Positions 1 through 2,565 of a stretch of 2,565 bases of DNA are shown here, one piece after another; within the stretch, counting starts at the first letter, position 1, and each line of letters opens with the position of its first letter. Under the pieces are notes generated by a model. That model did not search any database, was not told the DNA's origin, and saw nothing but the letters and a program-made list of their open reading frames with translations. The DNA lies in the sequence record OP745094.1, one strand, 5' to 3'. The position numbers and the translations under genes are program-made. Source of the stretch: Escherichia phage MCn10.

Positions 1-2565
1 ATGAAAATTGCGGTGGTGGATAAAGCGCTGAACAACACCCGCTATGATAAACATTTTCAGCTGTATGGCGAAGAAGTGGATGTGTTTCATATGTGCAACG
101 AAAAACTGAGCGGCCGCCTGCTGAAAAAACATATTACCATTGGCACCCCGGAAAACCCGTTTAACCCGAACGATTATGATTTTGTGATTCTGGTGGGCGC
201 GGAACCGTTTCTGTATTTTGCGGGCAAAAAAGGCATTGGCGATTATACCGGCAAACGCGTGGAATATAACGGCTATGCGAACTGGATTGCGAGCATTAGC
301 CCGGCGCAGCTGCATTTTAAACCGGAAATGAAACCGGTGTTTGATGCGACCGTGGAAAACATTCATGATATTATTAACGGCCGCGAAAAAATTGCGAAAG
401 CGGGCGATTATCGCCCGATTACCGATCCGGATGAAGCGGAAGAATATATTAAAATGGTGTATAACATGGTGATTGGCCCGGTGGCGTTTGATAGCGAAAC
501 CAGCGCGCTGTATTGCCGCGATGGCTATCTGCTGGGCGTGAGCATGAGCCATCAGGAATATCAGGGCGTGTATATTGATAGCGATTGCCTGACCGAAGTG
601 GCGGTGTATTATCTGCAGAAAATTCTGGATAGCGAAAACCATACCATTGTGTTTCATAACCTGAAATTTGATATGCATTTTTATAAATATCATCTGGGCC
701 TGACCTTTGATAAAGCGCATAAAGAACGCCGCCTGCATGATACCATGCTGCAGCATTATGTGCTGGATGAACGCCGCGGCACCCATGGCCTGAAAAGCCT
801 GGCGATGAAATATACCGATATGGGCGATTATGATTTTGAACTGGATAAATTTAAAGATGATTATTGCAAAGCGCATAAAATTAAAAAAGAAGATTTTACC
901 TATGATCTGATTCCGTTTGATATTATGTGGCCGTATGCGGCGAAAGATACCGATGCGACCCTGCGCCTGCATAACTTTTTTCTGCCGAAAATTGAAAAAA
1001 ACGAAAAACTGTGCAGCCTGTATTATGATGTGCTGATGCCGGGCTGCGTGTTTCTGCAGCGCGTGGAAGATCGCGGCGTGCCGATTAGCATTGATCGCCT
1101 GAAAGAAGCGCAGTATCAGCTGACCCATAACCTGAACAAAGCGCGCGAAAAACTGTATACCTATCCGGAAGTGGTGCAGCTGGAAAAAGATCAGAACGAA
1201 GCGTTTAACCCGAACAGCGTGAAACAGCTGCGCGTGCTGCTGTTTGATTATGTGGGCCTGACCCCGACCGGCAAACTGACCGATACCGGCGCGGATAGCA
1301 CCGATGCGGAAGCGCTGAACGAACTGAGCACCCAGCATCCGATTGCGAAAACCCTGCTGGAAATTCGCAAACTGACCAAACTGATTAGCACCTATGTGGA
1401 AAAAATTCTGCTGAGCATTGATGCGGATGGCTGCATTCGCACCGGCTTTCATGAACATATGACCACCAGCGGCCGCCTGAGCAGCAGCGGCAAACTGAAC
1501 CTGCAGCAGCTGCCGCGCGATGAAAGCATTATTAAAGGCTGCGTGGTGGCGCCGCCGGGCTATCGCGTGATTGCGTGGGATCTGACCACCGCGGAAGTGT
1601 ATTATGCGGCGGTGCTGAGCGGCGATCGCAACATGCAGCAGGTGTTTATTAACATGCGCAACGAACCGGATAAATATCCGGATTTTCATAGCAACATTGC
1701 GCATATGGTGTTTAAACTGCAGTGCGAACCGCGCGATGTGAAAAAACTGTTTCCGGCGCTGCGCCAGGCGGCGAAAGCGATTACCTTTGGCATTCTGTAT
1801 GGCAGCGGCCCGGCGAAAGTGGCGCATAGCGTGAACGAAGCGCTGCTGGAACAGGCGGCGAAAACCGGCGAACCGTTTGTGGAATGCACCGTGGCGGATG
1901 CGAAAGAATATATTGAAACCTATTTTGGCCAGTTTCCGCAGCTGAAACGCTGGATTGATAAATGCCATGATCAGATTAAAAACCATGGCTTTATTTATAG
2001 CCATTTTGGCCGCAAACGCCGCCTGCATAACATTCATAGCGAAGATCGCGGCGTGCAGGGCGAAGAAATTCGCAGCGGCTTTAACGCGATTATTCAGAGC
2101 GCGAGCAGCGATAGCCTGCTGCTGGGCGCGGTGGATGCGGATAACGAAATTATTAGCCTGGGCCTGGAACAGGAAATGAAAATTGTGATGCTGGTGCATG
2201 ATAGCGTGGTGGCGATTGTGCGCGAAGATCTGATTGATCAGTATAACGAAATTCTGATTCGCAACATTCAGAAAGATCGCGGCATTAGCATTCCGGGCTG
2301 CCCGATTGGCATTGATAGCGATAGCGAAGCGGGCGGCAGCCGCGATTATAGCTGCGGCAAAATGAAAAAACAGCATCCGAGCATTGCGTGCATTGATGAT
2401 GATGAATATACCCGCTATGTGAAAGGCGTGCTGCTGGATGCGGATTTTGAATATAAAAAACTGGCGGCGATGGATAAAGAACATCCGGATCATAGCAAAT
2501 ATAAAGATGATAAATTTATTGCGGTGTGCAAAGATCTGGATAACGTGCGCCGCATTCTGGGCGCG
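1..2565 (+). CDS. Family A DNA polymerase with 3'-5' proofreading exonuclease domain, T5-like phage replicative polymerase; 855 codons, no stop codon within the window
   Basis: Frame +1 is open from ATG at 1-3 to the last base with no in-frame stop. Manual translation shows exonuclease motifs: Exo I in VAFDSETSAL (D164/E166, nt 490-498), Exo II in HNLKFD (D224, nt 670-672), Exo III in YAAKDTDAT (Y312/D316, nt 934-948). Polymerase motifs: motif A in WDLTTAEVYY (D527, nt 1579-1581; E532, nt 1594-1596), motif B/O-helix RQAAKAITFGILYG (nt 1762-1803; compare E. coli Pol I RRSAKAINFGLIYG), motif C in MLVHDSVV (H733-D734-S735, nt 2197-2205). The 855-aa length and the N-terminal MKIAVVDKALNN... sequence match my recollection of phage T5 DNA polymerase; not verified by search. 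Gene symbol left blank because I am not certain of the T5 gene name. Confidence 0.93.
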   Translation, partial: MKIAVVDKALNNTRYDKHFQLYGEEVDVFHMCNEKLSGRLLKKHITIGTPENPFNPNDYDFVILVGAEPFLYFAGKKGIGDYTGKRVEYNGYANWIASISPAQLHFKPEMKPVFDATVENIHDIINGREKIAKAGDYRPITDPDEAEEYIKMVYNMVIGPVAFDSETSALYCRDGYLLGVSMSHQEYQGVYIDSDCLTEVAVYYLQKILDSENHTIVFHNLKFDMHFYKYHLGLTFDKAHKERRLHDTMLQHYVLDERRGTHGLKSLAMKYTDMGDYDFELDKFKDDYCKAHKIKKEDFTYDLIPFDIMWPYAAKDTDATLRLHNFFLPKIEKNEKLCSLYYDVLMPGCVFLQRVEDRGVPISIDRLKEAQYQLTHNLNKAREKLYTYPEVVQLEKDQNEAFNPNSVKQLRVLLFDYVGLTPTGKLTDTGADSTDAEALNELSTQHPIAKTLLEIRKLTKLISTYVEKILLSIDADGCIRTGFHEHMTTSGRLSSSGKLNLQQLPRDESIIKGCVVAPPGYRVIAWDLTTAEVYYAAVLSGDRNMQQVFINMRNEPDKYPDFHSNIAHMVFKLQCEPRDVKKLFPALRQAAKAITFGILYGSGPAKVAHSVNEALLEQAAKTGEPFVECTVADAKEYIETYFGQFPQLKRWIDKCHDQIKNHGFIYSHFGRKRRLHNIHSEDRGVQGEEIRSGFNAIIQSASSDSLLLGAVDADNEIISLGLEQEMKIVMLVHDSVVAIVREDLIDQYNEILIRNIQKDRGISIPGCPIGIDSDSEAGGSRDYSCGKMKKQHPSIACIDDDEYTRYVKGVLLDADFEYKKLAAMDKEHPDHSKYKDDKFIAVCKDLDNVRRILGA

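Follow-up and report, generated by a model that had tools for sequence, protein, structure and literature searches.

The DNA polymerase of bacteriophage T5 (Demerecviridae / Tequintavirus) is a replicase of high activity that has been studied for a long time, and its sequence, with the serine in motif C, has been public for decades. The stretch of DNA analysed here (2,565 nucleotides from Escherichia phage MCn10, sequence record OP745094.1; referred to below as the window) encodes a polymerase of the same length, 855 residues, which differs from the T5 enzyme in nothing of substance. This report concerns its motif C, which reads His-Asp-Ser (HDS) where the model enzymes of DNA polymerase family A have His-Asp-Glu (HDE). 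T5 polymerase is highly processive and strand-displacing and has served as an engineering scaffold (PMC12677585). The residue numbers used for it in the literature (D164, E166, A593) fit the window protein. With the Klenow enzyme, and also with Taq, Bst, and T7 DNA polymerases, the window polymerase shares the two-domain architecture of exonuclease and polymerase, the fold, and the collinear motifs A, B, and C. The group has in common the two metal-binding aspartates, the glutamate of the steric gate, and the Arg, Lys, and Tyr of the O-helix, whereas Klenow E883 and T7 E655 (HDE) are matched by Ser735 (HDS) in the window polymerase. Reviews list the HDE glutamate among the active-site residues: D705, D882, and E883 for Klenow (PMC10520511, PMC5872031), D653, D830, and E831 for Bst (PMC10520511), and D610, D785, and E786 for KlenTaq (PMC5872031).

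A serine at the position of the motif C glutamate is already known, having been published for two family A enzymes. In the polymerase of Thermus phage vB_Tt72, S616 is the equivalent of E883; the variant S616A keeps 76% of the activity, while D384A and D615A drop to 4% (PMC9324360). As a family A enzyme with Ser at the E883 position, it resembles T5 polymerase, and in it the two aspartates are essential and the serine is dispensable. It belongs to a distant thermophilic lineage with less than 30% identity to other family A polymerases (PMC9324360) and is likened to T5 polymerase here by its published description. The second enzyme is POLIB from Trypanosoma brucei, in which motif C is HDS throughout its lineage (PMC9731263). 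The authors of that study, which appeared in 2022, termed HDS unique, with HDE being "invariant" in all other family A polymerases; they pointed to Ser in T3 and yeast mitochondrial RNA polymerases as well and tied HDS to a preference for the extension of RNA primers (PMC9731263). Unlike T5 polymerase, POLIB is a eukaryotic organellar enzyme with a 369-residue thumb insertion and a dominant exonuclease activity (PMC9731263). A 2023 reclassification of family A into 19 clusters omits the T5-like polymerases because these had not yet formed a proper cluster, and its text does not discuss the motif C glutamate (Czernecki et al., 2023; PMC10201439).

T7 RNA polymerase reads H811-D812-S813 in its PDB sequence. 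Its catalytic aspartates are D537 and D812, and Ala is found two residues before the motif A aspartate, as in T5 polymerase. The single-subunit RNA polymerases of the T7 type thus resemble T5 polymerase in having a related palm fold and an HDS motif C. T7 RNA polymerase is, however, an enzyme of a different family which is devoid of a proofreading domain, and it is no relative of T5 polymerase by family membership. It nevertheless shows that HDS chemistry works.

The motif C of the window polymerase forms a beta-hairpin of residues 729-741 (VMLVHDSVVAIVR; positions 2185..2223, plus strand), which was delimited by alignment to Klenow and lies across strands 726-732 and 735-741 of the structural model. 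H733-D734-S735 is encoded at positions 2197..2205 on the plus strand (in the context IVMLVHDSVVAIV). HMMER aligned 590 residues to Klenow (E = 7e-50) and paired "kivmlvhdsvvaiv" with "rmimqvhdelvfev", with no gap nearby, so that H733-D734-S735 falls on H881-D882-E883. D734 therefore corresponds to D882, the second metal-binding aspartate, and S735 to E883. The same register was obtained with a profile hidden Markov model (HMM) of 110 sequences for 18 polymerases from cultured phages and for T7 DNA polymerase, which served as a control and reads H653-D654-E655. In an AlphaFold2 model, H733-D734 is placed at the hairpin turn between the two predicted strands, which is the classical geometry of motif C. 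We thus consider it confirmed that motif C of the window polymerase is HDS, with S735 at the E883 position. A preceding sequence-only reading had assigned motif C to these same three residues; translation, Klenow alignment, and predicted hairpin all agree with it, and the alignment that it had called for at the E883-equivalent position has Ser there, not Glu.

In the T5 lineage, HDS is found with hardly an exception. The window protein was compared with 50,697 phage records by tblastn. The closest polymerase is that of Salmonella phage Th1 (99.9% identity, 100% coverage); no phage polymerase record in this set is 100% identical, and 132 records show at least 99% identity. Polymerases from T5-like phages of Salmonella, Escherichia, and Citrobacter are 96-99.9% identical to it over the full length, the lineage-specific N- and C-terminal extensions included. 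Identity falls abruptly from at least 49% within the T5-like clade to at most 29% for all other phage polymerases. Compared with the nearest representative of the 90%-identity clusters, the window protein has seven differences, and none of these falls on the residues of motifs A, B, and C that were examined. Judged by these similarities, the window protein is the replicase of a phage of the T5 (Tequintavirus) type. A strict HDS pattern was applied to the 120 closest representatives of 90%-identity clusters, which are 49-99% identical to the window protein, and 118 matched it; one of the two exceptions does carry HDS, and the second is a protein that stops at motif B. H733, D734, and S735 are invariant in an alignment of 40 sequences. 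Among 35 T5-like polymerase domains from a wider set, position 735 is Ser in 34 and Ala in one, and Glu does not occur. A further sample was selected independently of motif C by scanning IMG/VR with a degenerate DNA pattern that encodes motif B. The scan returned 120 loci, all of them family A polymerases, of which 110 include motif C; HDS is present in all 54 T5-like contigs among these. The alignments thus show that HDS is fixed in the T5 lineage and that S735 is invariant or nearly so across the clade.

The same residue is common outside this lineage. A sample of nearest representatives consisted of the best 150 of 30,125 matches among 1.84 billion 50%-identity representatives, and 110 of these span motif C: HDS (75), HDA (18), HDE (12), HDC (3), HDQ (1), and YDS (1). 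This sample was ranked by similarity to T5 polymerase and is biased accordingly, but Ser is still the commonest residue among representatives that are only 30-36% identical to the T5 enzyme. A second sample is a set of 18 cultured-phage polymerases, which were picked at regular intervals along the tblastn ranking and aligned by the profile HMM. Here, Glu occurs five times, Ser and Ala six times each, and Gln once. HDS was found in the SPO1-like Bacillus phage Goe16, Staphylococcus Kayvirus RODI, Maribacter phage Colly_1, an Erwinia jumbo phage, and Vibrio phage ICP2; YDS in Alteromonas phage AD45-P4; HDA in four N4-like Schitoviridae, Gordonia phage Emalyn, and Pseudomonas phage ErraS; HDQ in Flavobacterium phage immuto; and HDE in Streptomyces phage GiJojo, Mycobacterium phage Ciao, Vibrio phage GH32, Salmonella phage emhyr, and Pseudomonas phage M6. 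The 56 IMG/VR contigs that are not T5-like, which were chosen regardless of motif C, have HDE (23), HDS (17), HDA (13), or HDQ (3). Across 128 aligned polymerase domains, position 735 is Ser in 82, Ala in 24, Glu in 17, Cys in three, and Gln in two, and at least 27 parsimony changes were counted at this position on a crude neighbour-joining tree.

These counts show that Ser or Ala at the position of the motif C glutamate is common among phage and metagenomic family A polymerases, and that HDS is an ordinary form of the motif. The glutamate is not a family-defining residue, with Ser, Ala, Cys, and Gln together outnumbering it in phage and metagenomic members. The published view that HDS is unique to POLIB is contradicted by T5 polymerase itself and by many polymerases of cultured phages. 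Of the expectations of the sequence-only reading, the one that HDS might be a genuine feature of the T5-like lineage was borne out by the 40-sequence alignment, the cluster representatives, and the IMG/VR contigs. Its view that most family A polymerases have HDE and that Ser is an uncommon substitution stands for enzymes such as Klenow and T7 DNA polymerase but not for phage and metagenomic enzymes (Glu in 5 of 18 and 23 of 56); for the latter, the outcome by which that reading would have had to be given up, namely that HDS is normal in many family A polymerases, is what was found.

The remainder of the catalytic core is conserved. Motif A comprises residues 523-536 (VIAWDLTTAEVYYA; positions 1567..1608, plus strand) and is aligned to Klenow "ivsaDysqiElr". 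Its metal-binding aspartate D527 (positions 1579-1581, plus strand) and the steric-gate residue E532 pair with Klenow D705 and E710 in the HMMER alignment, and each of the two is conserved in 127 of the 128 sequences. Motif B, the O-helix that binds the deoxynucleoside triphosphate (dNTP), comprises residues 588-601 (RQAAKAITFGILYG; positions 1762..1803, plus strand), is aligned to Klenow "RrsaKainFGliYG", and conforms to the pattern R-x3-K-x3-F/Y-G-x2-Y-G; R588 and K592 are conserved in 128 of 128 sequences. In motif C, D734 is present in all 128 domains and H733 in 126. The catalytic core is thus intact, with metal-binding Asp527 and Asp734 being essentially invariant. Every residue required for two-metal catalysis and dNTP selection is kept, and only the glutamate is lacking.

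The window polymerase most likely performs nucleotidyl transfer by the standard two-metal mechanism, in which the two Mg2+ ions would be bound by D527 of motif A and D734 of motif C. Structures of other family A enzymes place the glutamate in the second shell, close to metal A and the end of the primer, and it is not known to ligate a metal directly in them. In its place, the hydroxyl of a serine would therefore be enough, and the HDA enzymes would do without any such group. At most, the hydroxyl of Ser735 would offer a hydrogen bond in the vicinity of metal A and the primer terminus, a bond that would not be required. Because position 735 is labile across family A (Ser, Ala, Glu, Cys, Gln), HDS is best read as a lineage marker and not as a sign of altered or impaired chemistry. 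We assign a probability of about 0.85 to this reading, that is, catalysis of the ordinary kind with two aspartates and two metals, for which the accessory glutamate is dispensable. The mutagenesis of the Tt72 polymerase and the HDS motif of T7 RNA polymerase fit a dispensable glutamate, as do the high activity and processivity for which T5 polymerase is well known. Several points weigh against it. A solved structure of T5 polymerase was not found, and we infer where the Ser735 hydroxyl lies with respect to metal A and the primer 3'-OH. Our search of the literature found neither mutagenesis of S735 in T5 polymerase nor usable Klenow kinetics for E883A or Glu883. The accessory role of Klenow E883 is drawn from work on Klenow mutants and ternary complexes, and from reviews in which E883 counts among the "active-site residues" (PMC10520511). 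Finally, the clade has strictly Ser and not a mixture of Ser and Ala, which suggests some selection on the hydroxyl; because of this strict conservation, a modest role of the hydroxyl is possible.

This last point also leads to a different explanation, in which Ser735 is a functional specialisation that favours RNA primers or ribonucleotides, or that tunes metal preference, processivity, or strand displacement. Besides the strict conservation of Ser in the T5-like clade, the HDS motif of T7 RNA polymerase and the link between HDS and RNA-primer extension proposed for POLIB (PMC9731263) speak for it. Yet the steric-gate glutamate E532, which excludes ribonucleoside triphosphates, is conserved, and Ser is present in numerous unrelated phage replicases, where it interchanges with Ala, Cys, and Gln. 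The Tt72 variant S616A, moreover, loses only about a quarter of the activity (76% being kept; PMC9324360). We therefore regard a specialisation as improbable. Far less probable still, to a degree that makes it practically negligible, is a misalignment in which the true motif C, with Glu at the E883 position, lies elsewhere in the protein. This worry had been raised by the sequence-only reading itself, and three further HD dipeptides do exist (residues 122, 246, and 656), but all of them are outside motif C. The ungapped Klenow alignment is flanked by the conserved residues R691, N695, Q699, and D704, and the profile HMM, MAFFT, and the predicted hairpin (726-741) are concordant with it; D734, as noted, is invariant in 128 of 128 sequences. 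The worry was thus unfounded, and a misalignment was rejected.

It might also be supposed that another acidic residue makes up for the missing carboxylate and that the T5 active site still contains three carboxylates. Of the alignment columns, the one that most closely follows the presence or absence of Glu at position 735 lies two residues ahead of the motif A aspartate (T5 A525, positions 1573-1575, plus strand; Klenow S703), referred to here as motif A minus 2. Outside the T5 clade, Glu, Asp, Gln, or Asn is found at this position in 48 of 76 non-Glu enzymes and in 1 of 17 of the Glu class (Fisher p = 1.6e-5), and this was replicated in the motif-B-selected IMG/VR sample (loci L019-L138), with 19 of 30 against 0 of 18 (p = 7e-6); both tests ignore phylogeny, and P0249, P0208, and P0264 are counter-examples to the covariation. 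The motif A strand is expected to adjoin the motif C hairpin at its second strand, given the palm topology, which resembles that of the RNA recognition motif. A Glu at motif A minus 2 may therefore represent a relocated accessory carboxylate. For T5 polymerase, however, such a compensation is very improbable. It has Ala at this position; among T5-like sequences, 33 of 35 show Ser, Ala, or Gln there, and Glu or Asp never occurs. No other column among the 128 aligned domains co-varies comparably with position 735. Two carboxylates are likewise enough for the N4-like enzymes (Gly combined with HDA) and for T7 RNA polymerase. The fact that Glu and Asp never occur at position 525 in T5-like polymerases suggests that these enzymes, like the N4-like ones and T7 RNA polymerase, work with two carboxylates only.

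If the covariation is taken at face value, family A active sites might be arranged in three classes, a scheme that we put forward tentatively and hold to be more doubtful than probable. In class (i), the third carboxylate would follow the motif C aspartate (HDE; Pol I, T7, and D29-like enzymes). In class (ii), HDS or HDA would be combined with Glu, Asp, or Gln two residues before the motif A aspartate, on the neighbouring strand. Class (iii) would have the two aspartates only and would hold the T5-like and N4-like enzymes and T7 RNA polymerase. Should the minus-2 residue truly replace the motif C glutamate, then the "invariant HDE triad" would be a matter of which model enzymes had been sampled, and T5 polymerase would be a natural minimal two-carboxylate replicase. 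The covariation is a small, testable lead on how an accessory carboxylate can be moved or lost.

For T5 polymerase itself, a well-known enzyme, the motif C serine is of little consequence. The value of the comparison is corrective: the "invariant HDE" of recent papers reflects a sampling of model enzymes, and Ser or Ala at this position should not be taken as a sign of inactivity, of an annotation error, or of an RNA-related function.

The reading frame of the window (positions 1..2565, plus strand, frame 1) is complete and consists of 855 codons, none of them a stop codon. It uses only one codon per amino acid, in each case that preferred by E. coli (all 57 alanines are encoded by GCG and all 76 leucines by CTG). 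The window DNA is therefore a back-translated protein which carries information only in its protein sequence. It comprises this one protein, with no DNA on either side of it that would show the genomic context. For this reason, any nucleotide-level findings from the window (codon usage, repeats, promoters, DNA similarity) would be artefacts.

The family A polymerase domain comprises residues 369-760 (positions 1105..2280, plus strand; Pfam PF00476, E = 4e-66, 223.9 bits with a cut-off of 34.3). With this domain and with motifs A, B, and C including the His-Asp pair, the protein has the hallmarks of family A except for the glutamate after the motif C aspartate. The AlphaFold2 model, computed from 40 homologues, has a predicted local distance difference test score (pLDDT) of 88.3 and a predicted template modelling score (pTM) of 0.83. 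Klenow is both the best sequence match by HMMER and the best fold match by Foldseek, where the TM-score on the target is 0.85, as for a Klenow-like right-hand fold. The top Foldseek matches are Klenow, Bst, M. smegmatis Pol1, and phage G20c PolI (E from 1e-30 to 1e-33). The last of these structural neighbours was considered as a candidate Ser enzyme and rejected, as it reads D683-E684 (PMC9629493).

The 3'-5' proofreading exonuclease domain is located upstream, at residues 137-331 (positions 409..993, plus strand; Pfam PF01612, E = 1.3e-39). Its Exo I residues D164 and E166 (nucleotides 490-498, plus strand) are invariant in homologues, and the complete DEDDy set (D164, E166, D224, Y312, D316) is invariant in the 40-sequence alignment, as in proofreading-proficient enzymes. 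The substitutions D164A/E166A have been used as exonuclease knockout in T5 polymerase (PMC12677585). The alignment with Klenow spans residues 158-748. The N-terminal extension (residues 1-135, positions 1-405) and the C-terminal one (residues ~775-855, positions ~2325-2565) have no Klenow counterpart, and both were modelled as folded segments with good confidence. The C-terminal part (about residues 800-855) is absent from many T5-like homologues of 780-800 residues of Vibrio and marine origin.

Contigs of a T5-like group with near-identical motifs (IVAMDLTTAEVY / RQAAKAVTFGIMYGA / FALVHDSILAEVP) account for 54 of the 110 viral contigs retrieved by the generic motif B pattern, and T5-type replicases are apparently very abundant in the IMG/VR viral metagenome collection. 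In four T5-like homologues (P0037, P0053, P0128, P0145), an insertion of ~340 residues directly follows the Exo III region (after about window residue 325, nucleotide ~975); an intein splicing domain and a LAGLIDADG endonuclease are among the Pfam domains precomputed for P0037 and P0053. Many metagenomic T5-like products end at a catalytic motif: P0147, P0149, P0152, and P0145 end exactly at the equivalent of window residue 527, the motif A aspartate, and P0113, P0125, P0135, P0143, and P0128 end inside motif B (…FGI, residues ~594-598). This suggests that metagenomic T5-like genes are split at their catalytic motifs by introns, inteins, or homing-endonuclease insertions and not truncated at random.

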